Below are positions 5,372 through 33,248 of a stretch of 51,197 nt of DNA, in pieces; the first letter of the stretch is position 1; the number at the start of each line of letters is the position of its first letter. Position numbers and translations under genes: made by a program. Source of the DNA: Patescibacteria group bacterium (lineage in GTDB: Bacteria; Patescibacteriota; JABMPQ01; JAHIRA01); contig JAHISJ010000007.1 of the NCBI GenBank assembly GCA_018818205.1, forward strand, positions 1 through 51,197. Direction: 5' to 3'. The notes below the pieces were generated by a model. It had not been told where the DNA came from and ran no database searches. It worked only from the letters and a program-made list of their open reading frames with translations.

Positions 5372-5410
5372 AGTACCTCCTTGAGTGTGAAAGTGTAATG
5401 TTCTAGTGGC

Positions 5411-5438
5411 AGTATAGTCGAATGCTGAATTTAATCAA
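5411..5438 (-). promoter_or_regulatory. Sigma70 promoter candidate for the 4679-5371 gene
   Basis: TTGATT-16 nt-TATACT on the minus strand. Confidence 0.55.
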
Positions 5439-5511
5439 GAGCGGATTAAAGAAATGTAGATCGAAGATTTGTATTGTTTGTTAATATGCCTTCACTCTTT
5501 CACGCAAATTA

Positions 5512-5540
5512 TTGACACTTAACGCTATTTTCTGTACAGT
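5512..5540 (+). promoter_or_regulatory. Sigma70 promoter candidate
   Basis: TTGACA-17 nt-TACAGT. Confidence 0.6.
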
Positions 5541-5568
5541 AAAGTGCTATCGTTTTTTTTGAAATTAG

Positions 5569-6033
5569 ATGGGAGGACAATTGTTAAGCATTTCTTTTGA
5601 CGGACGGTGGATTGCATGGGCGAGAATCATTTCCGAAAGTGATCCGAGCGTTGAGATTAAATTGTGGGACGTTTCTAGAAAACAAGTCCTATCATATTTG
5701 GCAATGCCTATCCAACTTAATGCCCCTGATTGCCTCGTGAGGTCGTTTGAACTTGGCAATGCAATAGAGCAGATCTCAAATGAACTTGCGGTTAATGTAC
5801 AATTTCCACATCTTGGAAGCAGTGCGTATGTGAGAGTGGCATACGGGAGAAGGCGATGGTATTTTGTTTTGAGTGTTTCAGAAAAAAGTACGTTTAGGCG
5901 TGCAAAAAAAATTCCCACTATTACTTTTTTGCCAAAGAAAATCGATTCAAACGGAGTTGTCATCGACAATGGCTACAGGATTCAGATACTGGAAAGCTTT
6001 CGATTTATTACCTCAGTTAAGAAGATTGAATAA
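5569..6033 (+). CDS. Hypothetical protein with a single WD40-like repeat at the N-terminus (start may be TTG 5581)
   Basis: SISFDGRWIA...EIKLWDV; GGGAGG at 5571-5576 precedes TTG 5581; promoter upstream and terminator downstream. Confidence 0.6.
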   Translation: MGGQLLSISFDGRWIAWARIISESDPSVEIKLWDVSRKQVLSYLAMPIQLNAPDCLVRSFELGNAIEQISNELAVNVQFPHLGSSAYVRVAYGRRRWYFVLSVSEKSTFRRAKKIPTITFLPKKIDSNGVVIDNGYRIQILESFRFITSVKKIE

Positions 6034-6038
6034 TTATG

Positions 6039-6069
6039 GCTACACGGAACATCCGATGTAGCTTTTTTT
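6039..6069 (+). terminator. Intrinsic terminator
   Basis: GCTACA-CGGA/TCCG-A-TGTAGC bulged stem followed by T7. Confidence 0.7.
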
Positions 6070-6080
6070 CTCCAAAATAA

Positions 6081-6109
6081 TTGACTTTGCTCTTTATCTA
6101 TGCTATAAT
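6081..6109 (+). promoter_or_regulatory. Sigma70 promoter, extended -10
   Basis: TTGACT-17 nt-TATAAT with TGc before the -10. Confidence 0.7.
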
Positions 6110-6130
6110 TAAACTACATAAATACACTAT

Positions 6131-6667
6131 ATGGCTAAATTTACTTCACAAAGACTCACCCGTGACGTCAGTTATGACACAGGAGGGGAGCAGAAGTTCA
6201 AAAAAACATTAACAAAAAGTCCAAAAGCAAGTGGACTTCTTAAGGAATACCTTGGCCAAAGAGGAAAGCGTGGGTACTCTAAGAAGACGTGGAACAAGTT
6301 CATGCGTAAAAAGGGTCCGCGAGCTATGTCTCGAACGAGTAGAAAATCGATTGAGTCGTATCTTAACCCATACGGAAAAAGTTCAGACAGTGCAGCAAAA
6401 GCAGCTCAAGCACAGCCTTCAGCGGCTCCAAAGAAGTCATCATGGTTTAGTAAACCGTCGCTTAGCGATGCAGATAAGCAAAAAGTTGAAAAAAGATCAG
6501 ACGCTGCGTTAAAACGAGAGACACGAAGTTTGCGTAATCAATTTGGTTCAGGAAAGGCAAGTTTTACCCGTAGTGGAGGCTTTGATTCAGGGTCAAAAGG
6601 TCGTACAAATTTACCGCCACCACCGCGTATGCCTCCACCACCACCGAGACCGCCAAGTCTCGGATAA
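6131..6667 (+). CDS. Hypothetical highly basic low-complexity protein with polyproline C-terminus
   Basis: K/R/S-rich 178 aa ending LPPPPRMPPPPPRPPSLG; own promoter. Confidence 0.75.
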   Translation: MAKFTSQRLTRDVSYDTGGEQKFKKTLTKSPKASGLLKEYLGQRGKRGYSKKTWNKFMRKKGPRAMSRTSRKSIESYLNPYGKSSDSAAKAAQAQPSAAPKKSSWFSKPSLSDADKQKVEKRSDAALKRETRSLRNQFGSGKASFTRSGGFDSGSKGRTNLPPPPRMPPPPPRPPSLG

Positions 6668-6685
6668 AAATATCCACATAAGTAC

Positions 6686-6714
6686 TTGACAAAAGGTTTA
6701 AGGAATAGTACGGT
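6686..6714 (+). promoter_or_regulatory. rpoBC promoter candidate
   Basis: TTGACA-17 nt-TACGGT. Confidence 0.5.
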
Positions 6715-6803
6715 TACTGCATGAAAAATCTCAACCGGGGTTTTATTTGCCTTTTTAATAATTAAAAGGGCCTTTGTTAGTTAAAGACAAGGGGCTTTGT
6801 TTT

Positions 6804-9800: not shown

Positions 9801-10277
9801 GAAAAAACAACTGTTGGGTATATGTATATTTTGAAGCTGTACCATTTGGTTGAAGATAAAATTCACCAGAGATCAATTGGACCGTACTCACTGGTAACGC
9901 AGCAGCCTCTTGGTGGTAAAGCACAGTTCGGTGGTCAGCGATTTGGAGAAATGGAAGTATGGGCGCTTGAGGGGTATGGTGCGGTACATACGCTCCAAGA
10001 AATGCTCACCATTAAGTCCGATGATGTTATTGGGCGTTCAAAAACGTACGAGAGCATTATTAAGGGCGAAGAAATCAGACAACCAAATATTCCTGAGTCC
10101 TTTAACGTGTTAGTTAAAGAGCTTAAAAGTTTGTCTCTTGAAGTAGAACTACTGGGAACCAAGGATGAATCAGAGGGAGGCGATGAAGATGAGGAGGAGC
10201 AGGAAAAATCGGAAAAGCCCGAGGTTCAAGAAGATAGTGAACCATCACAGGACCCCGTCAAAGAAGATGAAAAATAA
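6804..10277 (+). CDS. rpoB: DNA-directed RNA polymerase beta subunit
   Basis: [50 protein letters not shown] 6804 preferred over TTG 6774. Confidence 0.99.
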
Positions 10278-10319
10278 TTACTTTCTTTCTTATCTAACTT
10301 CTCATTTTAAAGTCTATCT

Positions 10320-13300
10320 ATGTCTAATGTCCCAAATGATTTTTCTGGCATAAAGCTCAAACTTGCGTCGCCAGAAAAAGTCCTCGAATGGTCGCATGGC
10401 GAGGTAAAAAAGCCAGAGACGGTAAACTACCGTACTCAAAGACCAGAAAAAGATGGTCTCTTTTGCGAACGAATTTTTGGTCCAACCAAGGATTGGGAGT
10501 GCTATTGTGGAAAATATAAAAGAATTCGATATAAAGGCATTGTTTGTGACAAGTGTGGTGTTGAAGTAACCCGTTCTATCGTGAGACGAGAACGTATGGG
10601 ACACATCAGTCTTGCAGCACCGGTCACGCATGTATGGTTTTTACGTGGCATCCCTTCAAAAATTGGACTTATGCTCGACATTTCTGCACAAAACCTAGAA
10701 AAGGTGATTTATTTTGCGAGCTATATCATTACGTCAGTAGACTTAGAGGCAAAAGAAGATATGTTGTCTCAAGCTGCGGATGAGTTTAAAAAGAAAAAGA
10801 AAGGGCTAAAGAAAATATACGAGGCAAAGATTCAGGAGATAAGGAACGAAGCACTTGAGAAAAAGGCACAGAGCAAAGCAAAAAATATTGACGTACGAGC
10901 AGAAAAACAAGCCCTAAAGTTGGAAGAAGAAAAGGAAAAGCAATCAAAGGAGTTAGGTGATAAATACAATCAGGCTAAGAAAGAAATAGAAAATATTAAA
11001 AAGCTTTCTATTATTTCTGAAATTGAGTACCGTACACTTTCAATGAAGTACGGACATGTTTTTGAAGCAGGCATTGGTGCGGAAGCGGTAAGAAGGGCAC
11101 TTGAAGAGGTTGACCTTAAAGAAGGGATTGAGACACTTAAACAAAATCTTATTGACGCCCCTGCATCACAGAAGAAAAAAATCAGACGCAGGCTCAACCT
11201 GTATCAACATCTTAATAAAAATGAAATTAGACCAGAATGGACGGTACTTAACGTACTTCCAGTTATTCCTCCAGACCTGAGGCCAATGGTGCAGCTCGAT
11301 GGTGGTCGTTTTGCCGCGTCTGATCTTAACGATCTGTATAGACGAGTAATCAATCGTAACAATCGGTTAAAAAGGCTTATAGAAATAAATGCCCCCGAGG
11401 TTATTTGTAGGAATGAAAAGAGAATGTTGCAAGAAGCGGTTGATGCACTTATTGACAATAGCGCGAGACACGGGAAGGCAGTCGCCTCAACATCGGGTCA
11501 AAAGAGGGTGCTTAAGTCCCTTGCTGATATGCTGAGAGGTAAACAGGGTCGGTTTAGACAAAACCTGCTCGGTAAACGTGTTGATTATTCTGGACGAAGT
11601 GTGATTGTTATTGGTCCAAATCTCACTCTTGGTGAGTGTGGAATTCCAAAAACCATGGCACTTGAACTCTTTAAACCATTTGTGATTAACGAACTTATTG
11701 AACAAGAGCATGCACATAATATTAGAAGTGCATCAAGGCTTATAGAAGAAAAGTCGCCGGAAGTATGGGATATGCTTGAAGAGGTTATTAAGGGCCACTT
11801 CATTATGATCAACCGTGCGCCGACACTGCATAGACTAGGAATTCAGGCGTTTCAACCGGTGCTTATAGAAGGTAAGGCGATTCAGATTCACCCTATGGTA
11901 TGTACCGCGTTTAATGCAGACTTTGATGGTGACCAAATGGCCGTACATGTGCCGCTTACCGAGCCTGCACAAAAAGAAGCTCGTGAGATTATGAGCTCAA
12001 CGACCAATTTACTTAAACCGGCAACGGGAAAACCTATCGTGATTGCAACGCAGGACATTGTTTTGGGCTGTTACTACATCTCAACAATTAAGCCTGGTGA
12101 AAAGGGAGAAGGAAAATATTTTGCTTCCGTTGACGAAGCTATGATTGCGTTTGAACACGAACTTATTACACTCAGATCAAAAATTCATGTAAGAATAGCT
12201 CCAGGTGAAATAGTTGAAACATGTGTCGGTCGTATCTTCTTTAACACGATCCTTCCTAAAGAGATGGGATTTGTTAACGTAATACTTGATAAACGGGCCA
12301 TCTCTTCAGTTATTGCAAAGTGTTTAAACACGCTTGGAAATGAAGAAACTGTGGAAATTCTCGATAAACTCAAAGTACTAGGGTTTAAGTATCTCACTAA
12401 ATCAGGTCTTTCATGGGGTATGGATGATTTGCAAGTTCCCGTTGAAAAGAAAGAAATTCTAGGTGAGGCTGAAAAGCAAGTCGAAGAAATCAGACAACAA
12501 TACAAATCGGGATTTTTAACCGATAGTGAACGATACGTAAAAACGATTGAAACATGGGCAACGGCAAAGGATAATATTACTAAGGTATCGACAAAAACAC
12601 TTGATGAATACGGTCCGGTGTATGCCATGGTTGAATCGGGCGCTCGTGGATCCTGGCCGCAGATTGTTCAGATTATGGGTATGAGAGGTCTTATGGCAGC
12701 GCCATCAGGTAAAACTATTGAACTTCCGGTGCGTGATAGCTTTAAAGAAGGGCTTGGAGTGCTTGAGTACTTCATCTCGACGCATGGTGCTCGTAAAGGT
12801 CTTTCTGATACGGCGCTTAGGACTGCCAACGCTGGTTATTTGACGCGTCGTCTTATTGATGTTGCGCAAGATATGGTTGTTTTTGAAAAGAATTGCGGTG
12901 CAAAAGAGAGTATTGAGGTTAATAAAAAGGACAGTGATAGAATAAATGAAACAGTTGGTTCACGGTCTCTTGGTAGAACGGCAGCACAAGATATTGTTGA
13001 TCCAAAAACAGGTGAAGTCATCATCAAATCAGGAAAAATTGTGGGAGATGAAGAGGCAAAAAAGATCGATGATGCAGACATTGAGGCAGTAAACATAAGA
13101 TCAGTGATTACGTGCAAAGCATTAAGAGGTTTATGTAGCAAGTGCTATGGATGGGATTTGGGAAACAGAAAACAGGTCGAGATTGGCCAAGCGGTAGGTA
13201 TTGTCGCTGCACAGTCAATTGGTGAACCGGGCACACAGCTGACGATGCGTACCTTCCATACGGGTGGTGTTGCCGGTGATGGTGATATTACGCAGGGTCT

Positions 13301-18438: not shown

Positions 18439-19020
18439 ATGGCGCAAACACAAAACTCAAAGTACAGAGGTCCGCTTAAGGCTGCGCCTTTAGATATGGT
18501 GAGACCACAAAGAAAAAGCATATCTAGCCAAAGCAGGCAGACTTCTTATGAAATGCGAAGAAGACGCGTGCAAAAACCGGTAAGTGAGACTCCACAGGAG
18601 CCTCACTTACCCAGGCGGGATCAAGCAAAGCCTGCAAATCGCTCTGAAGAGGCTCCTCGTGTACTAAGCGATCCAGCACCTCGAGTGGCAAAACAACCAG
18701 AGCAAAAAACGCAGTCACCGCATACATTCAAAAAGAACCATGATCGTGAAACCAAACGGCCAAAACGAGGACGACGTTTTTTTGGCACGTGCTCTGTGCT
18801 CCTTGCACTCAATATAATTGTGCTTGGCGTGTTAATTTATTATGTGAGCAAAGTAGCACGAACGGTTGAAGCGTGGGACACGGAAGACATAAAAAATCAC
18901 ATTACTGAGACGTTGAATTTTCAGGAAGAAGCGCCGTCACAAAACGATGAGTTTTTTAACAAGATCATGGAGTCATCCGATCTTGAAAATGCAGTAAATA
19001 CCAACACAAAAGCAGAATAA
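18439..19020 (+). CDS. Hypothetical single-pass membrane protein with disordered basic N-terminus
   Basis: R/P/Q-rich N-terminus, one hydrophobic helix (VLLALNIIVLGVLIYYV), acidic C-terminus. Confidence 0.75.
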   Translation: MAQTQNSKYRGPLKAAPLDMVRPQRKSISSQSRQTSYEMRRRRVQKPVSETPQEPHLPRRDQAKPANRSEEAPRVLSDPAPRVAKQPEQKTQSPHTFKKNHDRETKRPKRGRRFFGTCSVLLALNIIVLGVLIYYVSKVARTVEAWDTEDIKNHITETLNFQEEAPSQNDEFFNKIMESSDLENAVNTNTKAE

Positions 19021-19086: not shown

Positions 19087-19515
19087 GTGGAAAAAGTTAT
19101 TATAGGCGCCTCGATTTTTTACTATTGGACGCATTTTAGTAATGATTTATTGAGAGAAGTACTCATTTCTTGCGGAGGGGATAAAGCACTTATTTTTTTG
19201 GGAGAAGTAACCGATGTTCGATTAGTCCATCTGCTGCAGTGGGGTTATTTATCCCGCAAAGGAAAAACGTGGGAAGTTGTAGTTAAAGGCGAAACGACGT
19301 GGAATGAAAGAGATCAGTTTGCATCGTTTTTACAGATTTGGACTTCGGGTTATGAAGTTAATTTCTGTGGAATGCCGTATGAATCTTTGGGGACTATCTC
19401 TAAAGAAGTTCATGAGGAAGTTCATGGAGCAGACATTGCATGTGAGCAAGCAATTTTTTTAATCCCGCCAGAGACATATTATGCATCAGGCGAAACAACC
19501 ATTCAGTTTGAGTAA
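19087..19515 (+). CDS. Hypothetical protein
   Basis: GTG start after TAGGAGGAATA; TTGACG-17-TTCAAT at 19025-19053; long imperfect hairpin at 19517-19564. Confidence 0.65.
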   Translation: MEKVIIGASIFYYWTHFSNDLLREVLISCGGDKALIFLGEVTDVRLVHLLQWGYLSRKGKTWEVVVKGETTWNERDQFASFLQIWTSGYEVNFCGMPYESLGTISKEVHEEVHGADIACEQAIFLIPPETYYASGETTIQFE

Positions 19516-19640: not shown

Positions 19641-20600
19641 ATGAAGTATACTTGCCTTTTTTCTGAAATAGGTAAAAAAGATGTGGCACGTGCCGGCGGT
19701 AAGGGTGCGTCGCTTGGAGAAATGACTAAAAAGGGATTCCCCGTACCTCCCGGTTTTGTTGTTGTAAGTTTTGCGTTTGAGAGTTTTTTGAAAGTAACAG
19801 ATTTACATGTAGAAATCAGCGCATTACTTGACACGGTCAATATACATGAAATACATACTGTTGAGAACGCTGCGTCAAAAATACAGAATTTGATTCTTCA
19901 AGCATATATGCCACATGAAATAGAAGAACACATTTTATGTTCTTTCAAAAAACTTAATACACCTTATGTCGCGGTGAGATCAAGTGCTACCGCGGAAGAT
20001 TCTTTAGAAGCTGCGTGGGCGGGCCAGCTTGAAAGTTATTTAAACACAACAGAAAAAACACTACTTTTGCATGTTCAGAAATGTTGGGCGTCACTTTTTA
20101 CACCACGAGCCATTTTTTATCGCTTAGAAAAAAATCTTATAAAAAATCCAATTTCCGTTGCAGTTGTTGTGCAAAAGATGATTCAAAGTGACGCGTCAGG
20201 TGTTGCGTTTTCTGTTCATCCTGTGACAGAAGATAAAAATCAGATGATTGTAGAAGCGTCGTATGGTTTGGGTGAGGCGGTTGTGTCAGGGAGTGTAACC
20301 CCGGATAGCTATGTGGTTCAAAAAAAGCCTCTTGCTCTATATGATATAAACGTGTGCGTTCAAACAAAGGGATTGTATCGTGGAAAAGAGGGTAATGAAT
20401 GGAAAAAAATCCCCCAAAAAAAAGGAGAGAGACAAGTACTTTTAGATAAAGAAATTCTTGAGCTTGCAAGAATTATTATGACCCAAGAAGAACATTGTGG
20501 CTTTCCGGTGGATGTTGAATGGGCGCTGGAAAAAGGAAAATTTTACGTCTTACAAAGTCGCCCCATCACTACACTAAAAAACAAAAAGCTCGCTTCATAA
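19641..20600 (+). CDS. Stand-alone PPDK_N (ATP-grasp, nucleotide-binding) subunit of the PEP synthase/dikinase family
   Basis: GGKGASLGEM, VPPGF, AVRSSATAED...AGQ, VVVQKM, GLGEAVVSG, DVEWA...LQSRPITTL, then stop after 7 residues; no His or pyruvate domain. Confidence 0.92.
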   Translation: MKYTCLFSEIGKKDVARAGGKGASLGEMTKKGFPVPPGFVVVSFAFESFLKVTDLHVEISALLDTVNIHEIHTVENAASKIQNLILQAYMPHEIEEHILCSFKKLNTPYVAVRSSATAEDSLEAAWAGQLESYLNTTEKTLLLHVQKCWASLFTPRAIFYRLEKNLIKNPISVAVVVQKMIQSDASGVAFSVHPVTEDKNQMIVEASYGLGEAVVSGSVTPDSYVVQKKPLALYDINVCVQTKGLYRGKEGNEWKKIPQKKGERQVLLDKEILELARIIMTQEEHCGFPVDVEWALEKGKFYVLQSRPITTLKNKKLAS

Positions 20601-20627
20601 AGAAACGAGCATCATACAATAAAGTGG

Positions 20628-22325
20628 TTAGCTTACCAGTTGCCCCTGACGATAAATGCGGGCAATGCCATGTTCTAAGTCTTCAACTTTGGCAGTGAGC
20701 TTTTTTGAGTCGGAAGCCAACGTTGCAAACTCTTCTTTGGTTCCTCCATGGGCGAGGAGTGTGCCGAACGTTTCTTTGTTAATGACTACAATATCTGCGG
20801 GCGCGCCTTCTATGAGTTTTCCCCGCATGCCATGGCCTGCCTCGTGCTCATAATCTGCTGCCATCAAGGAATACGCACTCAAGGCTTGCTCAAAAGAAAT
20901 ACGTTCTTTGGGGTTAGGGTGGTGGGTTGCTGCCCAGATGCCAAAGAGCGCTGACGGCGGCATGCCATCAGAGCCAAACATCATTTGTACTCCTTCTTGA
21001 AGCATTTCTGCGTGTGGACACAGTTGTGTAACGCGTCCATCAAGCCTGTCTTGATAGACCACATCGGTTAAGAAGTTAGGTTGAGATGATACCCATGCTC
21101 CAACAGAAGCTATCTCAGGAGAAAGTCCTTGGCTGAGCTCACAATGTTCTATTCTAAACTTTCCTGGATCAAGCTTGGCTTCTTTAGCAAGGTTTCTCCA
21201 TGATTTGGCTGTCTCAATCGCTCGTGCAACAGCTTTGTCACCAATTGCATGCATGGCAATTTTATTGAGCCCCATCGTGCGTGCATCTCCAATGGCTTGA
21301 TTTATTTCTTGCAAGGTATGATACTCCACTCCAACATTGTCTGATTTTTCGTACGGTTTTTTCATTAGAGCAGTGTGTGAACCAAAGCTTCCATCAGCAA
21401 GGAGCTTGAGACCGACAAGCGGTAAATCTTGAGCTCTATCAAATAATCCTTGTTTTTGAAGTGTGTCCAGATTTGAATAAAATTCCTTCATAATTTCTGG
21501 CGCCAAAAATACTTGTCTTACCGGAAATTCAGTGCCTCGTTCCTTTTGCCAGCTTTTTCGGGCCATAAGTAGTGCAACAACATCTCCATAGGAATAAGAG
21601 TACATATCGTGAATATTGGTGATTCCCTGTGAAATCCACGAGTCAAGTGTTGTTTCCATACCTTCAGCGATTCGTTCAACGCCATAATGACTTTCGGCAA
21701 TTTGAATGGCAAGAATAGCATGTCCTTCTGTTGCAAGTCCCTTTTTTGCATCAATATGTCCGGTAGTTCTCTTACCCAGACCCTTTTCCTCATGGACTTT
21801 TTTTGAAAGGAGGTCAATCATTGGTGTGTTGAGCCTGGCTCCATGAAAGCTGGAATCAATCATGCAATAGGGACGTTTGGTATCTACTCGGTCAAGATCT
21901 TCAAGAGAAATCTCTGCATTAGGGACGCTTTGTGTGTTATGTCCTAATATGACTTTTGGAAGAGCAAGATCTCCTGACCCCGTTTGTTCACGAAGCATTC
22001 TCATAATCTGATCTTTTGTTTTTCCTTCGCTGACATTGCCTGCATCAATAACTTCCATTGTTCCATAAGCAAGGTGATTGTGAGTATCGGTAAATGCAGG
22101 AAGTGCAACGCCACCTTCGTAGCGATCAAACAAAAGACTTGGCCTTCTTTCCTTTTCTGCATCTATCCATTGTCTAACGTCTCGTGGATCACCAATTTTA
22201 ACAATAGTTCCAGATTTCGGATCTAAAACCATTTGAATCTCGGTTTTTTTTTGAAGCTCTCTGCTTTCCGGTGAAGTTGGCACAAACGCCGCTTCCGGAT
22301 GCAGATGGGAGAGTTTTTCAGGCAT
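20628..22325 (-). CDS. Metal-dependent amidohydrolase, YtcJ-like (Amidohydro_3)
   Basis: DTHNH, KLLADGSFGSHTALM, MHAIGD, RIEH, FGSD, G..ADIVV; GGAGG SD. Confidence 0.88.
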   Translation of the reverse strand: MPEKLSHLHPEAAFVPTSPESRELQKKTEIQMVLDPKSGTIVKIGDPRDVRQWIDAEKERRPSLLFDRYEGGVALPAFTDTHNHLAYGTMEVIDAGNVSEGKTKDQIMRMLREQTGSGDLALPKVILGHNTQSVPNAEISLEDLDRVDTKRPYCMIDSSFHGARLNTPMIDLLSKKVHEEKGLGKRTTGHIDAKKGLATEGHAILAIQIAESHYGVERIAEGMETTLDSWISQGITNIHDMYSYSYGDVVALLMARKSWQKERGTEFPVRQVFLAPEIMKEFYSNLDTLQKQGLFDRAQDLPLVGLKLLADGSFGSHTALMKKPYEKSDNVGVEYHTLQEINQAIGDARTMGLNKIAMHAIGDKAVARAIETAKSWRNLAKEAKLDPGKFRIEHCELSQGLSPEIASVGAWVSSQPNFLTDVVYQDRLDGRVTQLCPHAEMLQEGVQMMFGSDGMPPSALFGIWAATHHPNPKERISFEQALSAYSLMAADYEHEAGHGMRGKLIEGAPADIVVINKETFGTLLAHGGTKEEFATLASDSKKLTAKVEDLEHGIARIYRQGQLVS

Positions 22326-22369
22326 ATTGAATTCCTCCGTAAATGTTTTTTACATTAGTGTGCTTTTTT

Positions 22370-22398
22370 ACCGTAGTGTAAAAAAGTACTAATGTCAA
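22370..22398 (-). promoter_or_regulatory. Possible internal promoter for the amidohydrolase gene
   Basis: TTGACA-17 nt-TACGGT on the minus strand; ACATTAGT/ACTAATGT inverted repeat at 22352-22395. Confidence 0.45.
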
Positions 22399-22408
22399 TG
22401 TATTTGGC

Positions 22409-23362
22409 TTAAATACGGTCTGTAACAGGAATGTCCAGAAGATACGTAACAAGCGCCATATTTGTATAGATTGCCGCTTCCAGCATTTCGTTTACAACCA
22501 TGCGGGGGTCATCATCCGTTTCTTTAAGTGCTGTAAGACGGCTGTCTGCGGTAGCCCTAGGTTCAAAGACACATACTGGCACGTTTTCTCGCATTTTTTC
22601 TAACTGTGTATTAGAGAAAGGAACAAAGTTTTTATTAAACTCAGCAACCAACGATTCATCTTCACCTGATTGTGGTAGTCCTTCTACAATAAACAAGAAA
22701 TCAACGTGATCGAGCATATCATCAAGTTTTGCTTGCTCATAGGTGCTACCATGTTCTTGAACGAGAGTTTGATTTTTTTCTGGAAGTGCCATCTCAGGAA
22801 TAATTGAATCCTCAATGAAGCTAACATCAAAATGACTTAGTACGTTTGAAACAGCTTTCATTGGCCGGGATGATTTGCTCATGCCATACACTCCAATTTT
22901 TTTACCCTTAAGATCTTCTAGGTGCTTCATGACTGTATACACGCAAAATAGTGCGCCAATAGCGTGTTCTTTGTCACCACACATAGCGTTTATTAGTGGA
23001 ATCGGATATCCTTTTTTGGCAAATGCAGATAAATCAAATGTTTTATGTCGAATTGCTAGAATATCACACAAAGGTGCAATAGAAGTAAGCGTATCGTCTA
23101 TATCTTCTTCACCTGTTTCAAGATAGGTGCCTTTGATCCCAGAGATACCAAACCATCCACCACCGAGTTTGATCATGGCGCTTTGCAAGCTTGCTGAGGT
23201 CCTGGTGCTTTCTTGAAAAAAATATGTAGCAATGACTTTTCCCGGGCATAGATTCGTGAAGTTTCTTTTTTCTTTAAGTCCGGTTTCAAAAATTTCTGCA
23301 CGACGAAACAGTTCAAGGTATTCTTCTTTAGTAAGATCTTGTGTTCTAGTAAAATGTTTCAT
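22409..23362 (-). CDS. Aspartate/ornithine carbamoyltransferase-family protein, divergent acceptor site
   Basis: FFQESTRT, LAIRH, PLINA..G..EH retained; HPTQ, RxQ and HPLP motifs replaced by HAIG, EGLPQ and FEPRA. Confidence 0.85.
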   Translation of the reverse strand: MKHFTRTQDLTKEEYLELFRRAEIFETGLKEKRNFTNLCPGKVIATYFFQESTRTSASLQSAMIKLGGGWFGISGIKGTYLETGEEDIDDTLTSIAPLCDILAIRHKTFDLSAFAKKGYPIPLINAMCGDKEHAIGALFCVYTVMKHLEDLKGKKIGVYGMSKSSRPMKAVSNVLSHFDVSFIEDSIIPEMALPEKNQTLVQEHGSTYEQAKLDDMLDHVDFLFIVEGLPQSGEDESLVAEFNKNFVPFSNTQLEKMRENVPVCVFEPRATADSRLTALKETDDDPRMVVNEMLEAAIYTNMALVTYLLDIPVTDRI

Positions 23363-23366
23363 ATTT

Positions 23367-24821
23367 TTACTGGTACTCTTTTAAGATTTTAACTTCACCT
23401 TTTGTTGCATTTACTTTGACGAGGTCCCCATCAGAAAGAACGTACGTTGCTTTTTTTGTGCCTACAACACAAGGAATTTCTAGTTCACGCGATATTATTG
23501 CTGCGTGACACGTGAGCCCACCTTCATCCGTAATAATGGCAGCTGCTTTTTCCATGGCGGGAACATAGTCGGGCAGTGTCATGCCACAGACTAGTATATC
23601 TCCTTTTTTTACTTTTTTTAGTGCGTCTTTGGCACCACAGCAAACTTTAACTCTTGCACGAGCTTGTCCTTTTGAAGCAGCTATTCCTGTAAGTAGCAAT
23701 TCATGACTACATTCTACATCTAATTCTTGTTGTGCGGCTGTTTGAGCTTCTCTACCGCTTAACGTTTTAATGCTATTTTTTTGCAATAGCACAAAGGTAG
23801 CTTTTTTTCTTTTTTCAATTTCCTTTTTATTTGCTGTGCCTCCACGTAAAATCTGCTTGATTTCATCATACCAGAGCCACTCAAAATCGTCTGTATTCAT
23901 TTTATAGCGTTTTGACACTTCCTTTCCCAATAGGTGGGCGGCATACACAGTCTTAACTTGCATTTCTTTTCGGAGATCAAGGTAGTGACAAAATTTGTCC
24001 ATTATCCAGAGCGTATGCTTAATCTTGTCTGAAAGAAAGTAATCTCTACAAAGTGTATCTCTTCTTTGCTTTATCTCCTTTGTTTTTTCTTGTAAGGCTA
24101 GCAATTCTTTTTTAGTCGAATTTTTGTTCTTTTTAACCTGATTTGAAAAATAAGCAATAGTATGTGGTGTCATGTTTTCCCAACCAAGCTTTGTCCACCA
24201 AAACTTTTTATGGATATTTTGAACATCTAACAGATCAGTTTTCTTCTTCTGAGCAACAGTCATTATTGCTTCTTTTTCTAGATTGATGTAAGAACGATAC
24301 TGTGGCGTGGTTATTTCTTGATACAGATTCATGAACTCTTCATTATCTAGATCACTCTTTTTGTTTGCCAACTCTTCTTTTATTATTATTTTCAGATAAT
24401 TGTCAAAAACGACATCAAAAGCATCAATGGCTAAGGTTAGCAAAGCGTGCGCAGAAGAAGATTCCTTGGATAAATAGTCGTAATAATATATTAATTCTTG
24501 GTTTGTACAATTACTAAGATTTTGTTTTTTTATTTTTCTTGCTGCTGCAAGCGCTCTCTTGGTGCAGTCATCAAATTGAGCAAATAGAGTAAGCGCTTTT
24601 GTTTTATTTGTGCAATCGCGTACGATTTGTTTGCCAATATCTTTAATCTCTGTGCCCCAAGCGCACCAGAGTTTGGGATCTTCGTTGTAATACAAGACTG
24701 AACAGAAGGAATTATCAAAGAACGTGCGCGCATGTTTATAAATACTAGTAAACATTATTGCCATACGATTAAGTTCAATGGTCCCGCGTGTGTAGATAAT
24801 CCATTGTGTTTTATCTTTCAT
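23367..24821 (-). CDS. Helical domain plus C-terminal PEP-utilising mobile (phospho-His swivel) domain, paralogue 3
   Basis: GDILVCGMT.P...ITDEGGLTCHAAIISRELEIPCVVGT; start ATG 24821 overlaps the upstream stop. Confidence 0.9.
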   Translation of the reverse strand: MKDKTQWIIYTRGTIELNRMAIMFTSIYKHARTFFDNSFCSVLYYNEDPKLWCAWGTEIKDIGKQIVRDCTNKTKALTLFAQFDDCTKRALAAARKIKKQNLSNCTNQELIYYYDYLSKESSSAHALLTLAIDAFDVVFDNYLKIIIKEELANKKSDLDNEEFMNLYQEITTPQYRSYINLEKEAIMTVAQKKKTDLLDVQNIHKKFWWTKLGWENMTPHTIAYFSNQVKKNKNSTKKELLALQEKTKEIKQRRDTLCRDYFLSDKIKHTLWIMDKFCHYLDLRKEMQVKTVYAAHLLGKEVSKRYKMNTDDFEWLWYDEIKQILRGGTANKKEIEKRKKATFVLLQKNSIKTLSGREAQTAAQQELDVECSHELLLTGIAASKGQARARVKVCCGAKDALKKVKKGDILVCGMTLPDYVPAMEKAAAIITDEGGLTCHAAIISRELEIPCVVGTKKATYVLSDGDLVKVNATKGEVKILKEYQ

Positions 24822-26301
24822 AGCTCGATCTTTTAGTAATCTTAATGACACCGTGATTAGCATTAACTTCAACGGAATCTCCGTCGCGTAGAATCTTTGT
24901 GGCCGATTTAGTTCCTACAACGCACGGGATAGAAAGTTCTCTACAAATAATTGCCGCATGACACGTAAGCCCACCTTCGTCGGTTACAACGGCGGCGGCC
25001 TTTTTCATAGCTGGAACAAACTCCGGCATGGTCATACCGGTTACTAAAATATCTCCCTCAGCTATCCGATCGTTTGCATCTTTTGAGCTTAAACAAATGC
25101 GTGCCGTACCGGTGACGCGCCCTGTTGATGCTGTAACCCCGCAAAACTCTTTGTCGCGTACTATTTTTTCAAAATCGGTTAAGGCGTTTCTTTTTTGTTG
25201 TGCTTCTTCTCCGTACCATTCCTTGAATGTACCATCATTTGAATATTCATAAAACCACTTTGCGTGTCTTTTTTGAGCAAGCTCAACATCGATCTTATTT
25301 TTTTTATATGCTATTGAGGCTGCTTCTTGGGGCCAAAAGTAGTATAAAATAGAGGCATCAGTTCCTATTTTCTTGCTTAGTTCTTTGTACAGTTTTCTAA
25401 GCAGCGCAACGGCTTTTACCTGGCCTTCTTTGCGTAAATCATGAAAAACGGCATAAGCGTCAAAAATTTCTAAATACGTGGTAACGATAGGATTTCTTTG
25501 CCCAATAATATGAACAATTTGTTTTTTTTGGCGTAGAGAGTTAGAAATAGAGGCTTTAATTTTTTGAATTTCTGGAATAATACTTTTTTTGTTTGATTTT
25601 TTATAATCAGAAAGAAGATTCTTTTTTGTATATACCCTTGCTTGTTCCCAACTGAAGTTAATCCAAAAATATTTTTTAATAAAAGTGTCGATACGTTTTT
25701 CTGATTTCTTTATACCGTTTTTGGTAATGAAATCAAACAGTTTGAGTTTTTCCAAATAAAACCTGTTTACATAACTTAAAACATTAGGATATGTTAACGT
25801 ATTTTTTATTTTTGCCTTTTTTGATTCTTTTGCATTTGGATATGTCGTGTCTATAAGGGGGTCAAAAAGAGGGTTGAGCATGACGTCGATTGCGTCAACG
25901 TTATACGTAATGCCGTGCCATAGGAGGGTCTTTTTGTATACCTGCAAAATGAGATCAGCAAGTTCTATTTTTGTTAGGGTAGAGAAATCTGTTTTGTTTG
26001 TTTTGGTAAAAAAAGAATCCAATAACGCAAATTCTTTATGCCAAAAGGCACAATAGTTTTTAAATGTTTTGTGACTTTTTAAGAATGTTTTTAAACAATA
26101 TGTTCCAACACGAGCATGGTCGGAGAAATTTTCGTAATAATAGGCGACGGTATTCTCAAGGTACAGACAAATTTTTTGATATTTTGGACCGTTTAAAAAC
26201 CGATTAGAATACTGAATGGAGTGTATAGGTATAGAAACGTTAAACGGATATAGCCCTGTTCTAATAAGCTCTTCCCACTCTGATGTCTTTTTTTTGGCCA
26301 T
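24811..26301 (-). CDS. Helical domain plus C-terminal PEP-utilising mobile domain, paralogue 2
   Basis: GDILVTGMTMPE...VTDEGGLTCHAAIICRELSIPCVVGT. Confidence 0.9.
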   Translation of the reverse strand: MAKKKTSEWEELIRTGLYPFNVSIPIHSIQYSNRFLNGPKYQKICLYLENTVAYYYENFSDHARVGTYCLKTFLKSHKTFKNYCAFWHKEFALLDSFFTKTNKTDFSTLTKIELADLILQVYKKTLLWHGITYNVDAIDVMLNPLFDPLIDTTYPNAKESKKAKIKNTLTYPNVLSYVNRFYLEKLKLFDFITKNGIKKSEKRIDTFIKKYFWINFSWEQARVYTKKNLLSDYKKSNKKSIIPEIQKIKASISNSLRQKKQIVHIIGQRNPIVTTYLEIFDAYAVFHDLRKEGQVKAVALLRKLYKELSKKIGTDASILYYFWPQEAASIAYKKNKIDVELAQKRHAKWFYEYSNDGTFKEWYGEEAQQKRNALTDFEKIVRDKEFCGVTASTGRVTGTARICLSSKDANDRIAEGDILVTGMTMPEFVPAMKKAAAVVTDEGGLTCHAAIICRELSIPCVVGTKSATKILRDGDSVEVNANHGVIKITKRSSYER

Positions 26302-26310
26302 GTATAAAGG

Positions 26311-27807
26311 TTATTTCTTTTTCTTCTTTTGAATTATCGTTACTATTCCAAGGTTAGCATCAACTTTAATTATATCACCATGCGCAATTGTTTTGGTAGC
26401 AGTTTGGGTTCCAATAATGCAAGGAATCTGCAATTCTCGCGCGATAATTGCTGCATGGCAGGTAAGACCGCCTTCATCGGTAACAATAGCCGAAGCTTTT
26501 TTCATAATGGGAACATATTCTGGTCGTGTCATGGGAGCAATAAGTATATCTCCAGTGTTCATTTTTGAAAAATCCTCTTGATTGAGAATGATTTTTGCTT
26601 TGCCAGAAGCTTTGCCAAAGCTCGCACACGTGCCGGCAACTGTTTTGTTTTTGGCGATACTGTTTTCAATAAGTGTATGGTATTCTTTTACCACTGAACC
26701 TGAATAAATGGTGGGTCTGTTTTTTTGTGGGGGAGTGGCACTAAGAGAGATCATAACTCCTCCTTTTGTTCTTTTTTGTAGTGTGGATAGGATGTGTGCA
26801 GTGTCGGAAAGAAGCAGTGTGACCTCGTCGGGTAATGTATATTTTAAGAGTTCGAGATCAAGATTTTTCTCATTTGCTATTTTTTCCATGACGGAGATAA
26901 TGTAATAATTGCTGATTTGGTTATATTTTTTTCGTTCATCTCTAAACTCAGAAATCCAGGAAAAGAATCGCAACCGGTCCTTTTCTTCTAAGGTCAGATC
27001 GTATTTTTGTATTTTTTGTTGTTTCAACGCTCTATTTTTTGTAAAGGTATCCAGAGTCTTTTGAATCAAAGTGATTTTTTCTTTATGGTAAGTAACGTCA
27101 ACCAGTTTCTTGGTGTAGTAATCAGAGTCAAGAAAGTACACTTTCTCGTAATCATTTTTTAACCAAAAGTAACGTTTAGCGTGTTCTTTTAAAGCCTTTT
27201 TAACGTTACTTGATGTTATTTTGTATTTTTGTGCGAGCGAAACAATCGTAAGAAAATCTTTTTGTTCTTGCATGTACAGTGGTAGATTATCCGGGCCGAG
27301 AAGTATGTGAAGATCGTTTTGTGTGAGTTTGTTTTTTTTAGATCCGAAGATAAAAGAAATAATTTCTTTGTCAAATGGATCAAGTAAGTCTATAAAAATA
27401 GAATGTTGCCAAAAGGTGAACGACTGTTCCAAAAAATCTTGATAGGTATATAGAAATGTTTCAGAAGATACTGGCAGTTGAATTAGGTTCAGGCCACTTT
27501 TTTCCATTTTTTTGCCGGCAGTAATAAAATGTTCGTAATGTGATTCAAAAAAATGGTCGTGCGCTTTTACATGGGAGAGTATTTTTTTAACTTCAGGTAA
27601 TGCACGAGTTTGATCGAAGTAATGATACAAACTAAAGCCTGAGGAAGTTTTTAAACACATTGACACGTCGTAAGGAAAGAACAATCCGGTCGTTACAACC
27701 ATTCTTCTTGATGACAAGGTTAAGAACGGTAAAAAAGCACAAAGTGGTATAGCTGCACCTGCCTGTTTGTACCAGTTGGTTGAACGAATTTTTTCTTTTT
27801 TAAGCAT
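26311..27807 (-). CDS. Helical domain plus C-terminal PEP-utilising mobile domain, paralogue 1
   Basis: GDILIAPMTRPE...VTDEGGLTCHAAIIARELQIPCIIGT; AGGAG SD supports ATG 27807 (27813 possible). Confidence 0.9.
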   Translation of the reverse strand: MLKKEKIRSTNWYKQAGAAIPLCAFLPFLTLSSRRMVVTTGLFFPYDVSMCLKTSSGFSLYHYFDQTRALPEVKKILSHVKAHDHFFESHYEHFITAGKKMEKSGLNLIQLPVSSETFLYTYQDFLEQSFTFWQHSIFIDLLDPFDKEIISFIFGSKKNKLTQNDLHILLGPDNLPLYMQEQKDFLTIVSLAQKYKITSSNVKKALKEHAKRYFWLKNDYEKVYFLDSDYYTKKLVDVTYHKEKITLIQKTLDTFTKNRALKQQKIQKYDLTLEEKDRLRFFSWISEFRDERKKYNQISNYYIISVMEKIANEKNLDLELLKYTLPDEVTLLLSDTAHILSTLQKRTKGGVMISLSATPPQKNRPTIYSGSVVKEYHTLIENSIAKNKTVAGTCASFGKASGKAKIILNQEDFSKMNTGDILIAPMTRPEYVPIMKKASAIVTDEGGLTCHAAIIARELQIPCIIGTQTATKTIAHGDIIKVDANLGIVTIIQKKKKK

Positions 27808-27925
27808 ATTCATTACTCCTCTGTTTTTAGAATAGCAAATGATTGTAATAAGAACAAACAAAAGTGCTATGTACTTTTTTTATATTATATGCTATAATTT
27901 AAACAAGAATTTAACGAAAAAAAAT

Positions 27926-28564
27926 ATGGGTATTGAAGGCGTGCGTGGACCAGGAGGGTATGCTGACTGGAAAGCTCCTGAAACGGAAGGTATTCAGGAA
28001 GCAAAAAAGCCATCTGGTGATACAAAGAAAGAACAACATGGCGATAAGCAAGCTGCCGATGCTGACAGAAAAGCACGCCAAGTGAGCTGGAATGAGGCCA
28101 TGAAACGTGCGGAAGATACCGGTGGGCACCATCCACAAGAAGAAGCGGATAGACAGGCAGAACAGCAGGCCCAAGGAGTTCCCGGAGGAGTGGATAGTGG
28201 AGTAGTGGCAGAACGGTATGGCAGCGGTGTTTCACGGCAGGAACTTGAGTCACAGTTACCTCCTCAAGCTCAAAGTCAATCACGAGCTGATAGATGGGCA
28301 CAGTATGGGACAGAGCAAGAACCAGCGCAAGGAGAAACTACGGAGGGAGTGGATCAAGCAAAGGCACTGATTGGCCAAATGCAAAGTACAGATGTGCCAG
28401 CATACTTTAAAAGACAAGTAGATGCTGCTTCAAATGTGAGTACGGCAGAAGAGGCTGCACAGGCGCTTAAAAAGCTTTCAGCTACTATTGAAAATTATCC
28501 TGATAGACGTATTAATCAGTTTAAGGATCAAATCGATACGGCTCTATCAACTCTTGAGCAGTAA
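27926..28564 (+). CDS. Hypothetical Q/A/E-rich largely disordered protein with small helical C-domain
   Basis: Open frame; TGcTATAAT just upstream favours ATG 27926; terminator downstream. Confidence 0.7.
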   Translation: MGIEGVRGPGGYADWKAPETEGIQEAKKPSGDTKKEQHGDKQAADADRKARQVSWNEAMKRAEDTGGHHPQEEADRQAEQQAQGVPGGVDSGVVAERYGSGVSRQELESQLPPQAQSQSRADRWAQYGTEQEPAQGETTEGVDQAKALIGQMQSTDVPAYFKRQVDAASNVSTAEEAAQALKKLSATIENYPDRRINQFKDQIDTALSTLEQ

Positions 28565-31076: not shown

Positions 31077-33248
31077 CTACATCTTCCACTCAGGAAGAGT
31101 TTTGTCTTTTTCTCCAGAAGCAAGAAGCAAGCCCCTGTTTACATTATACTCTCTTTTATTTCTTTCTGCTTCTATATCTAGCTTAGCAATTTCTTTTTGG
31201 AACTGACTTTTGAGATTTTCAAGAATCTCTGTTACTTCTCGTGGAGTTCTTGTTTCACCATATACTTCTTTAGGAAGGCTTTCATCTTCGAGTGTTGTTT
31301 TTTGTTTTCCGTGAAGCAGTACGTCAACTTCTAGACTGTCTAGGTGGCCAGATCTAAAGAGAGTGTTAATTGCGTTTGTGTAGCGCTCGTATTGCTCTTT
31401 CCATACGGGGTCTGCTTCTCTTTCTGCATGAGCCTCAACATCCTTTCTTCCAAATCCTCCAAAGCCTTTTTCAACATTTTTTCTAAAAAGCCTATCGTAT
31501 GTTCTTCTCATGACACCAGAAACGGATGACGAATTAAAATAGTCATTGCCTTGTATCTCAAAGATGGTGAGAACATTGTTAAGATCAGTATTTATAGTCT
31601 CGATTTCTTTGTCTGCCTCTCTAGCCTCTTTTTTTGCACGTTCCATTTTTTCTCGGAGCGTAATGTTTTGTTCTTGCGTTAACGTGGGTATGGTCTCAAT
31701 TGCTTGCAGTGCATCTTCTTCAGAAAAGCCAACGTCTAGCAGTCTTACTGCCATTTCTCCAGGAGTGATTTTTTCTGCCCGTTCCAGTTCTTGTAGTTGC
31801 AGCGAAGCTTCAATAAAGCGTTTTTTGTCATAGAGATCAATCATAAGCCCTTCAAAGAGTGCTTTTTCTACCTCCTCACATTTTTCATGGACTAAAAGGT
31901 CAAAAGGATAATCAGAAAGTTCTATAACATCGACGCGGTCGTGTACTAGCTTTTCAATTTCTGTATCAATGATGCGAAGTTGATTTTTTGGAGCGAGATC
32001 TTCAATGATAAACAATGCTCGTTCAACTCTGTCATTTGCATCATAGAGAATTGAATCAAGTTCTTCAGTAATGTCTTCCTTAATTTTGACTATTTCTGAA
32101 TCTGCATAATCTATTTCCTTGCTTTCTTCTCTGTATCTTTTTCTTATTGCTAAATATTCCTTTGCTTTTTCTGCAGTAAAGGTGCTGTAATAATTATGTT
32201 TAAACTCTCGTGAAAGGTGGAGTGCTTGTTCTAATTTTATTTTATACTGTTCTTTAAGGGGGTCATCACTTGCTACGCGTTCGTATTGACTTAAGAAGTT
32301 GACATACTGATTATAATAATGGTCGGAAAGGGTAAGGTCGTCTTCTGGAGCAGATTGTTCTGAATCTTGCTCTGTTTCTTGGGTTTCTGTATCTTCTCCA
32401 GTCTCTGGTGTTTCTTGCTCTTGTTGCTCTGCTAAATCAGGTACATCTTCTGGTGTGTCGATTTGCTCTTTGCGGGATAGTATCGGATCATCAATAGAAA
32501 GGGGAATAGCTGGTGCAATGAAATTCTCATCCAAAATCTGCGCTTCTGCCATGGCGGGGAAATCATCTCGGTAAATACGCATAGCTTCTTTTGCTCTCAT
32601 AATAAGATCGGCCGTATCGTACCATTCGGGTGATCCCTTTTCAAACTCATCTAACTTTGTGCGTGCCTCTTTTGCAATTTCCAAAATATCGAGCCACGCT
32701 GAATATGATGCCTCAACTTTTCTAAGAGGTTCAACGAGTGCGCCGGAACTGGCTTTTTCTTCAAAATCACCAATAATTGTGTTGAGCTTTTGAGCAATTT
32801 CTTGTCCGTATTCTGTGTGTTCGATAGTGCTTTCTTGGGTAGATTCTGGAACTTCAGGAGCAGTCACTTCGAGTTCAGGTGATGCAGGCTTAGCAGGTTC
32901 GGTCACTAGTGTTTCAGGAGGAGACTCGGCTAGTGGAGCATTCTCGGGTGCCGTAGGCGATGTTACTTTTTTTTGGCTTAAGGTGTGTTTTTTCGATTTC
33001 TTACTTTGTTTTGGTGTTGGCTCAGCTTCGTCAACACTGTATTTTTCACGTATTCGAGCTCTCTTCACTTCTCTTCCTGTTGCTCCTTTTCTTTCAGGCC
33101 GGGCAGTGGAATTTTCCTTTTGCTCCTGCCTTTTTCTCTTTTTTGCATCTCGTTGTTCTTTTATTCGTTGCTTATAGCTTTTCTCCTGAGGTTCAGCTTC
33201 TGGTTCGTGAGACGGTTCAAATCCTTGTTGTTCATCTACACCAGACAT
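31077..33248 (-). CDS. Large acidic hypothetical protein, disordered N-terminus and helical/coiled-coil body
   Basis: 723-aa ORF, E/K/P-rich; no recognisable motif. Confidence 0.8.
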   Translation of the reverse strand: MSGVDEQQGFEPSHEPEAEPQEKSYKQRIKEQRDAKKRKRQEQKENSTARPERKGATGREVKRARIREKYSVDEAEPTPKQSKKSKKHTLSQKKVTSPTAPENAPLAESPPETLVTEPAKPASPELEVTAPEVPESTQESTIEHTEYGQEIAQKLNTIIGDFEEKASSGALVEPLRKVEASYSAWLDILEIAKEARTKLDEFEKGSPEWYDTADLIMRAKEAMRIYRDDFPAMAEAQILDENFIAPAIPLSIDDPILSRKEQIDTPEDVPDLAEQQEQETPETGEDTETQETEQDSEQSAPEDDLTLSDHYYNQYVNFLSQYERVASDDPLKEQYKIKLEQALHLSREFKHNYYSTFTAEKAKEYLAIRKRYREESKEIDYADSEIVKIKEDITEELDSILYDANDRVERALFIIEDLAPKNQLRIIDTEIEKLVHDRVDVIELSDYPFDLLVHEKCEEVEKALFEGLMIDLYDKKRFIEASLQLQELERAEKITPGEMAVRLLDVGFSEEDALQAIETIPTLTQEQNITLREKMERAKKEAREADKEIETINTDLNNVLTIFEIQGNDYFNSSSVSGVMRRTYDRLFRKNVEKGFGGFGRKDVEAHAEREADPVWKEQYERYTNAINTLFRSGHLDSLEVDVLLHGKQKTTLEDESLPKEVYGETRTPREVTEILENLKSQFQKEIAKLDIEAERNKREYNVNRGLLLASGEKDKTLPEWKM

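Follow-up and report, generated by a model that had tools for sequence, protein, structure and literature searches.

The locus considered here lies on a 51,197-nucleotide stretch of DNA from a Patescibacteria group bacterium (JAHISJ010000007.1, assembly GCA_018818205.1; hereafter, the window), and it raises the question of what a stand-alone ATP-grasp protein does when it is encoded beside three tandem paralogues, modules A, B and C, each of which ends in a phosphohistidine swivel domain. A preliminary description had proposed a split dikinase, i.e., one ATP-grasp subunit that charges several specificity subunits. Our results lead us to consider it fairly probable that the system is a split (two-component), one-to-many small-molecule dikinase of the rifampin phosphotransferase (Rph) type, in which the ATP-grasp protein would charge the modules in trans and each module would have its own acceptors. 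The architecture in that proposal was confirmed; the split itself is not novel, for the enzyme kind is already known and its split form is in print as a two-component subfamily (PMC12167813, available text).

The putative charging subunit is encoded on the plus strand at 19641..20600. Its 319 residues match Pfam PPDK_N with E = 9.2e-95 over positions 3-316 of the 328 in the profile, so that the domain is indeed complete and stands alone, as first described, and resembles the nucleotide-binding components HpeI and PpsB of published systems. It aligns to residues 4-316 of Rph-Lm, with K21, R113, and S132 opposite Rph K22, R117, and T136, and both K21 and R113 are invariant in 9/9 stand-alone ATP-grasp proteins. 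Considering that it shares 49-58% identity with eight stand-alone orthologues found at other arrays and only 36% with the phosphoenolpyruvate (PEP) synthase, PpsA, of its own genome, the subunit appears to represent a separate, conserved lineage. It is also matched by a solved chain of 387 residues, 9goj_A (E = 1.4e-50), which we suspect to be the ATP-grasp component of a two-component system of this kind.

Could these genes instead be fragments of a decayed PEP synthase, i.e., pseudogenes or assembly artefacts? Automatic annotation would call all four of them "phosphoenolpyruvate synthase", and NCBIfam PEP synthase models are the best rows for all four. However, every one of these scores is far below its cut-off, and such automatic names are therefore likely to mislead. 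The genome (1.41 Mb in 29 contigs, 97% complete) has a single match to PEP-utilizers_C, the PEP/pyruvate-binding TIM barrel, within an 816-aa open reading frame (ORF) on another contig, where the frame stays open over 821 aa. Since this ORF also carries PPDK_N and swivel domains, it is an intact PpsA. Pfam detected no such barrel in the ATP-grasp protein or in the three modules, which agrees with the earlier statement that the window encodes none and is not the site of a broken PEP synthase. In addition, the N-terminal domains of the modules are not PEP-utilizers_C, all four ORFs are uninterrupted, and orthologues of the same architecture occur in 45 of the 301 sampled genomes of the phylum when searched with a profile of the N-terminal domain only. 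We give decay next to no credence on these grounds.

The modules are encoded on the minus strand, module C at 26311..27813 (~500 aa), module B at 24811..26301 (496 aa), and module A at 23367..24821 (484 aa). The likeliest start of module C is ATG 27813, which has GGAGG ahead of it (ATG 27807 is an alternative). Module A had been taken to start at TTG 24872, which we disfavor; ATG 24821, giving an 11-nt overlap with the stop of module B, is likelier. A PEP-utilizers mobile domain closes each module (E = 3.2e-26, 1e-25, and 4.7e-26 for A, B, and C), the swivel motif TDEGGLTCHAAI is identical in all three, and the catalytic residue of module B is His448. Identities between modules are low, at 31 and 28% to the first when the long ORFs are compared and at 30 and 26% to module B with corrected starts, and no Pfam family was matched by the ~380 N-terminal residues of any of them. 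The preliminary description, which counted three tandem paralogues with an intact swivel and a helical N-terminal domain of roughly 390 residues, was accurate in these respects.

The nature of the N-terminal domain was addressed by structure prediction on module B, whose acceptor domain spans approximately residues 1-380. The AlphaFold2 model, built from a 57-sequence alignment (mean predicted local distance difference test [pLDDT] 92.8; predicted TM-score [pTM] 0.89), has a mostly helical N-terminal domain. When the model was compared with the PDB by Foldseek, Rph-Lm (5fbu) ranked first (E = 9.5e-16, TM 0.57), and all lower-ranked matches aligned with a much smaller part of it (TM by query <=0.21). 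VIA-align placed model residues 8-490 on residues 329-867 of 5fbu (Z 19.3, root-mean-square deviation 5.3 Å, 422 aligned), a stretch of Rph that comprises the rifampin-binding domain together with the swivel. On its own, the N-terminal domain aligned to 5hv3 over 318 residues (Z 12.2), with model residues 4-376 placed on chain residues 325-748. Profiles pointed the same way, in that the 57-sequence module profile aligns to Rph 605-866 (E = 1.4e-35) and the NCBIfam Rph and PRK06241 models align to module A residues 255-497 and 318-497, respectively, including sequence upstream of the swivel. Profile A4 matches the N-terminal domain of module C at E = 7.7e-86, a match by construction, module C being one of the rows of A4. 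On grounds of both fold and profile, the N-terminal domains are thus predicted to be acceptor domains of the Rph type, in line with what had been supposed from the sequence.

Several residues that would be needed for catalysis are also kept. Arg666, Glu667, and Lys670 of Rph are reported to hold the phosphohistidine and the phosphate in the second phosphotransfer (PMC4844700, available text). A near-invariant [H/Q/R]-D-x-R-K motif of the modules lies on Rph R666-E667-Y-P-K670, with D288 of module B opposite Glu667 and K291 opposite Lys670, each >=90% conserved. Within the 57 aligned sequences, which are 21-49% identical from module to module, D288, R290, and K291 of module B are nearly invariant and the catalytic His is invariant (57/57); module C carries the motif as RDERK. 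Rph R666 itself aligns with His287 of module B, the conserved R290 following three positions later.

The preliminary description had asked whether these genes co-occur elsewhere. Related loci showed that the ATP-grasp and module genes do. We analyzed 18 other loci with modules (L016-L025, L028-L031, L033, L034, L036, and L037), leaving out L032 and L035 as duplicates of L021 and L018. They contained, in order, 7, 1, 2, 8, 8, 7, 1, 8, 7, 1, 6, 3, 2, 11, 7, 6, 8, and 9 module-like ORFs, and the catalytic His was kept in all of these (102/102). Each of the five array genomes checked in full (5/5) had exactly two PPDK_N matches, one in an ~800-aa PpsA frame and one in an ~320-aa frame. Relatives have 2-8 modules per single ATP-grasp protein, and the window's own genome has one stand-alone ATP-grasp protein and three modules. 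Natural fusions also exist: a 797-aa protein in G008 joins an ATP-grasp domain to one module, while in G216 a 3181-aa ORF (L025:2802-12347, translation table 11) and, in the representative library, a 2648-aa protein (P0004) each begin with an ATP-grasp domain and continue with six swivel-His motifs. Judged from gene content, the one-to-many layout is conserved across the array genomes checked, and the earlier idea of one ATP-grasp subunit shared among several modules is supported. The two megaproteins show a similar alternation of short (~350 aa) and long (~490-700 aa) modules. In P0004, W occurs where G would be expected (e.g., TDEGWITCH), as if the protein of an organism in which TGA is Gly had been read with TGA as Trp.

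The extent of the family was estimated in several ways. A word-based search with the N-terminal 380 aa of module B picked out only three proteins from 3991 candidates, including that of the window itself, and an exhaustive profile search was used instead. The latter yielded 32,231 proteins at E<=1e-3 and 8,113 at E<=1e-30; because the swivel is part of the profile, it probably admits ordinary Rph-like proteins too, and neither number can be used as the size of the clade. A profile search of contigs with a 4-row sub-alignment of the N-terminal domain reached 10 loci. By the N-terminal profile described above, the family is present in 13/16 genomes sampled from the order to which the window belongs, its own genome included. 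Module copy numbers per genome from the 301-genome survey are lower bounds, as no more than six candidates were scored in each genome. Record titles at the related loci name Candidatus Kuenenbacteria, Candidatus Nealsonbacteria, "Patescibacteria group bacterium", and one Candidatus Woesearchaeota metagenome-assembled genome (MAG); the titles "Gammaproteobacteria" and "Saccharibacteria" were not relied upon, as those contigs were placed in the window's phylum. According to the protein atlas, there are relatives in Minisyncoccota, Nanobdellota, and Microcaldota. The Woesearchaeota contig (L036, 12.5 kb) has eight tandem module genes at 20-11495, and their presence under a DPANN label could reflect either transfer between domains or a mis-binned contig. 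Shortened relatives occur in or beside arrays (L018:12395-13147, L016:16631-17656, L021:12769-14942, and ~350-aa frames in the 301-genome survey). Some of these, at 250-390 aa, hold part of the N-terminal domain only (L018:12395-13147, without a swivel match) or a swivel with a truncated N-terminal domain, and genes of 104-120 aa encode a swivel only (L024:2623-2937, L037:7149-7511).

Whether the paralogues are recent copies or old, distinct proteins bears on whether each has its own acceptor. We built a quick maximum likelihood tree (LG+G4, with Shimodaira-Hasegawa-like approximate likelihood ratio [SH-aLRT] support only) of 83 modules. It comprised the window's three and the 80 (of 102) module-like ORFs that measured 420-560 aa and had >=250 aligned residues, with short forms and fusions excluded. 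Arrays proved to be composed of members of different clades rather than of recent local duplicates. Module A falls in a clade with support of 99 that has one member from each of nine loci, the Woesearchaeota MAG included; with identities of up to 40%, this is the best-conserved orthologous group. Its sister, at the end of a long branch, is module B (support 96), and module C belongs to a group of nine (support 90). This pattern indicates that the paralogues are old and have been kept apart, which, as far as a tree can tell, suggests distinct functions, although it is no proof of distinct acceptors. Since the three N-terminal domains are old and divergent, each module probably serves a different acceptor.

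A mechanism for the split dikinase follows from the precedent of HpeHI, CreHI, and phenylphosphate synthase (PpsAB) and from that of Rph. ATP would be bound by the 319-aa ATP-grasp protein. The swivel His of module A, B, or C would then dock on this protein in trans and take the beta-phosphate, and AMP and inorganic phosphate (Pi) would leave. The charged swivel would swing back to its own Rph-type N-terminal domain, where the Asp-x-Arg-Lys motif would position the phosphohistidine and the phosphate would pass to a bound small-molecule acceptor, presumably a different one for each module. Transfer in trans, the release of AMP plus Pi, and small-molecule acceptors that differ between modules are all projected from these precedents. 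We count in support the domain content, the homology to the Rph fold, the conserved catalytic residues, the one-to-many layout, and the natural fusions of one ATP-grasp domain with one or six modules. Operation in reverse, in which carbamoyl phosphate or acyl phosphates would drive ATP formation, was set aside on general thermodynamic grounds. A predicted complex of the ATP-grasp protein (alignment A6) with module B (alignment A3) scored 0.01 against a mark of 0.32; the prediction was run without controls and counts neither way.

Several observations weigh against this reading. The ATP-grasp gene lies within the examined stretch at only 10/18 loci, and in G011 and G015 the short ATP-grasp gene is on a different contig than the eight-module array. 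Because it was homology to the modules that led to the loci, and close relatives are among them, the counts are not independent. Accessory genes vary between loci, and hence no common pathway points to the acceptors. Arg666 of Rph has no positional equivalent in the modules. Furthermore, the swivel domains score best with PEP synthase models (E ~1e-38 to 1e-40, vs. ~1e-19 to 1e-22 with Rph) and keep the Thr that is a regulatory site in PEP synthase; their likeness to PpsA leaves room for charging by full-length PpsA.

These last features suit a different proposal, in which the modules, charged by PpsA or PEP, are phospho-carrier or regulatory proteins that hand phosphate on to proteins or else assemble into a structural hetero-oligomer. 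The nearest relative of the swivels is PEP synthase (52% identity over 71 residues to the PpsA of this genome), the GG-x-T-C/S-H Thr is retained in them, and the swivel domain of enzyme I of the phosphotransferase system (PTS) is homologous. However, the N-terminal domain is homologous to the acceptor domain of Rph and has the Asp and Lys that position the phosphohistidine, and a dedicated lineage of stand-alone ATP-grasp proteins accompanies the arrays, with fusions to modules in some genomes. No PEP-binding barrel is found alongside the arrays, and the genome has no match to PSRP, the PEP-synthase regulatory kinase (PF03618). We regard a carrier role as very unlikely.

Since the only solved homologue of a full module is rifampin phosphotransferase, a battery of detoxification enzymes must also be considered, in which each module would be an Rph-like resistance kinase directed against a different antibiotic or toxin of the host or of neighbors of these ultrasmall, surface-attached cells. 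Diversified tandem paralogues would suit the recognition of many compounds, and an in-silico resistome survey lists rph-like genes in genomes of the Candidate Phyla Radiation (CPR) (PMC8651080, available text). However, the old orthologous groups, which span classes and a DPANN MAG, look more like fixed metabolic roles than like an arms race, and identity to Rph is only 14-18%. The arrays also lie among housekeeping genes (rpoBC, recA, and ychF), and the recurrent carbamoyltransferase-like gene described below has no obvious part in resistance. Genes of ~200 aa belonging to the HD/HAD phosphohydrolase families are interleaved among modules at L028:12474-13079, L028:17692-18303, L037:5712-6317, and L023:12280-12879; if they act on module products, they would reverse the phosphorylation, at odds with detoxification. 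A kinase array with phosphatase-family genes inside it may hint at cycling between phosphorylated and dephosphorylated states. Taken together, we find a detoxification battery quite improbable.

In the order of the minus strand, modules C, B, and A are followed by a carbamoyltransferase-like gene (22409..23362) and an Amidohydro_3 gene (20628..22325), and the set converges on the ATP-grasp gene. The carbamoyltransferase-like gene starts 4 nt after the stop of module A and encodes a divergent 317-aa protein of the aspartate/ornithine carbamoyltransferase (ATCase/OTCase) fold. OTCace_N (E = 2.6e-26) is its sole Pfam match, and TIGR00670 gives 123.3 bits, under the cut-off of 236.95. The protein keeps S52, T53, R54, T55, R105, H106, H133, and R166, but the HPxQ Gln is missing, as is the aspartate-site R-x-Q; STRTS and HAIG stand in place of the STRTR and HPTQ of the PyrB that this genome also encodes. 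That PyrB is canonical (338.7 bits vs. a cut-off of 263) and has all three substrate motifs (STRTR, HPxQ, and R-x-Q-x-ER). It is encoded on another contig (G000:C4:168517-170883, L026), directly after a carB-like gene that matches the C-terminal half of the large subunit of carbamoyl-phosphate synthase. The start of de novo pyrimidine synthesis seems, from these genes, to be present, and the earlier framing of a lineage with minimal metabolism needs corresponding care. The carbamoyltransferase-like protein, for its part, is by sequence a real, though divergent, member of its fold.

Its association with modules recurs. A match to the protein occurs in 62/301 genomes (counting one flagged as unpublished), and the four best non-self matches (G015, G011, G294, and G292; 141-149 bits, 32-33% identity) all lie directly beside module arrays, whereas the next-best matches reach <=100 bits. 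On a Kuenenbacteria contig, a copy of 60% identity lies near modules, and in G292, a minimal case, the ATP-grasp gene, one module, and the carbamoyltransferase-like gene stand in a row. The coupling to module A and the divergence noted in the preliminary description held, and the gene was found at 5/18 other loci. A functional link to the modules is conceivable, in that the protein still has its STRT/Arg/His set for binding phosphate and could make use of a phosphorylated product.

Such a link underlies another proposal, in which the modules, driven by ATP, phosphorylate a carbonyl or amide and so activate it for bond formation in the manner of PigC/RedH or of glutamine kinase, and the carbamoyltransferase-like enzyme and a hydrolase complete a pathway of biosynthesis or salvage, for example of a ureido or nucleotide-like compound. 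NCBIfam PigC and RedH models match the ATP-grasp and swivel parts (E = 6e-69 and ~1e-19), but these matches stop short of the acceptor domain. Since the carbamoyltransferase-like protein retains the phosphate site (S52, T53, R54, T55, R105, H133) and has lost the HPxQ Gln and R-x-Q, it could take another donor of the acyl- or carbamoyl-phosphate type. Three amide hydrolases adjoin the gene, namely Amidohydro_3 here, M20 at L021, and Cyclase at L022, and nucleotide-related neighbors occur elsewhere (phosphoribosyltransferase, PfkB, cytidylyltransferase-like). However, the hydrolases are mutually non-homologous, the M20 gene is on the opposite strand, and as a group they give a weak hint. The limited recurrence of the carbamoyltransferase-like gene also tells against the proposal, as does the variable nature of the gene beside it, which encodes either a module from another clade or, with 307 aa, a protein that has no Pfam match. 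With no condensation partner or carrier protein evident, we judge this type of activation unlikely.

The Amidohydro_3 gene, 83 nt downstream of the carbamoyltransferase-like gene, encodes a 565-aa metal-dependent amidohydrolase (Pfam E = 2e-39; 136.8 bits vs. a threshold of 29.7), for which NCBIfam offers no specific equivalog. The preliminary description had made it part of the system; blastp found no homologue at any of the 18 other loci, and its membership is doubtful. Nor is the ATP-grasp gene co-transcribed with the modules; it is on the opposite strand, converging on the amidohydrolase gene, and is a neighbor of the module operon rather than a member. Neighbors that recur at arrays elsewhere are HD/HAD phosphohydrolases, a small cytidylyltransferase-like gene, MetK, PfkB, S-adenosylhomocysteine hydrolase, and a phosphoribosyltransferase, several of which are shared only among apparently closely related genomes.

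The remainder of the window consists in part of core housekeeping genes that flank the locus (rpoB, rpoC, ftsK, rodZ, recA, ychF, phosphoglucomutase, iPGM, RNase J, and uvrC). No tRNA genes were found in the window, and none of the nine local proteins (0/9) matched a PADLOC model of anti-phage defense. The sequencing runs on record were four of DNA (two labelled groundwater and two biofilm metagenomes, one of which may be the source sample) and none of RNA. Pfam, NCBIfam, and PADLOC gave no match for the ORFs at 27839-28564 (+), 18439-19020 (+), 19087-19515 (+), and 31077-33248 (-). The first of these encodes 241 aa rich in Gln, Ala, and Glu and diverges from module C, the next two lie between recA and the ATP-grasp gene, and the last encodes 723 aa. 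The region of modules B and C (24001-28000) has the lowest GC content of the middle of the window, 0.352-0.358 compared with ~0.39-0.43 nearby, which may reflect Lys-rich coding or a different history.

Novelty, if any, would lie in the arrangement. In the open-access literature and preprints, supplementary tables excluded, we found no account of one-to-many split dikinase arrays in CPR or DPANN genomes and none of six-module megaproteins. The resistome survey mentioned above records rph-like genes in CPR genomes, and its available text does not remark on arrays or splitting (PMC8651080); the gene tables of such surveys could still list module genes. Split Rph-type dikinases have so far been known as single pairs that start the breakdown of phenolics, while here a conserved array occurs in genomes of 0.6-1.4 Mb. 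In G110 (~0.6 Mb), eight module genes make up ~2% of the DNA, a large investment for a reduced genome that argues for an important function. That function could be the trapping or activation of metabolites, detoxification, or activation for condensation. For an ultrasmall groundwater bacterium, the arrays suggest an unstudied system of phosphate distribution in reduced genomes, and recognizing them as a distinct system would correct their annotation as PEP synthase or rph-like. The modules are also soluble proteins with which the metabolites that uncultured symbionts take up or modify could be probed. More speculatively, and we hold this only as a tentative possibility, Patescibacteria and DPANN, ultrasmall symbionts of both domains, may share a dedicated phosphate-distribution system in which one charger serves up to eleven or more ancient, functionally distinct modules that, by irreversible phosphorylation, trap or activate metabolites scavenged from hosts. 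If so, the PTS would have a cytoplasmic counterpart driven by ATP, and a major part of life with minimal biosynthesis would have gone unrecognized.

Compared with known systems, the carbamoyltransferase-like protein is nearest to PyrB. Its closest solved sequences are archaeal ATCases (E = 8e-28), and equivalents of STRT, R105, and H134 are kept, but it differs from PyrB in falling under the family cut-off and in its lack of the HPxQ Gln and R-x-Q. PpsA and pyruvate phosphate dikinase share with the window's proteins homologous ATP-grasp and swivel domains, including the PpsA-type swivel motif and its Thr; they differ in having the PEP/pyruvate TIM barrel. The relay from enzyme I through HPr to the enzymes II of the PTS resembles the proposed system in logic only, one donor serving many specificity components, although the swivel of enzyme I is homologous. 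Here the donor would be ATP rather than PEP, there is no HPr or enzyme II homologue and no membrane component, and transfer is proposed to run directly from the swivel His to an acceptor within the same polypeptide.

Rph (PDB 5FBS, 5FBT, 5FBU, and 5HV1) has the same three functional parts as the window's system, and the fold of its acceptor and swivel domains is shared. In the ATP-grasp protein, Rph K22 and R117 are conserved, as are equivalents of Glu667 and Lys670 in the modules. In contrast, Rph is a single chain of 867 aa and the window's system is split, with fused forms in relatives; the N-terminal domain of the modules has ~380 aa vs. ~430 in Rph, sequence identity is as low as noted above, and Arg666 is not kept in position. 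We have no evidence for rifamycins as substrates of these modules.

The closest likeness in organization is to HpeHI, CreHI, and PpsAB, two-component dikinases that consist of an ATP-grasp subunit and a subunit with a swivel and an Rph-type acceptor domain (PMC12167813, available text, here and for the following statements on these enzymes). These systems need both components and cannot do without the His, HpeH by itself transfers phosphate from one acceptor to another, and HpeH, CreH, and PpsA are ~45% identical to one another. As in the window, a separate ATP-grasp protein is paired with a protein that combines swivel and acceptor domains. NCBIfam PRK08296 models, which describe "hypothetical protein" families of ~600 aa, match the modules in the swivel part only. 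The modules are also shorter, at ~490 aa vs. 71 kDa for HpeH (the comparison with HpeH, PpsA, and CreH being by description only), and their swivel motif is PEP-synthase-like (GGLTCH, with the Thr), which we count as a difference. Whereas HpeHI, CreHI, and PpsAB are each described as a single pair of components in the catabolism of phenolic aromatics, the window has one ATP-grasp protein for three modules and no genes of aromatic catabolism nearby, and in its relatives, all from genome-reduced Patescibacteria or a DPANN MAG, the number of modules is 1-11.

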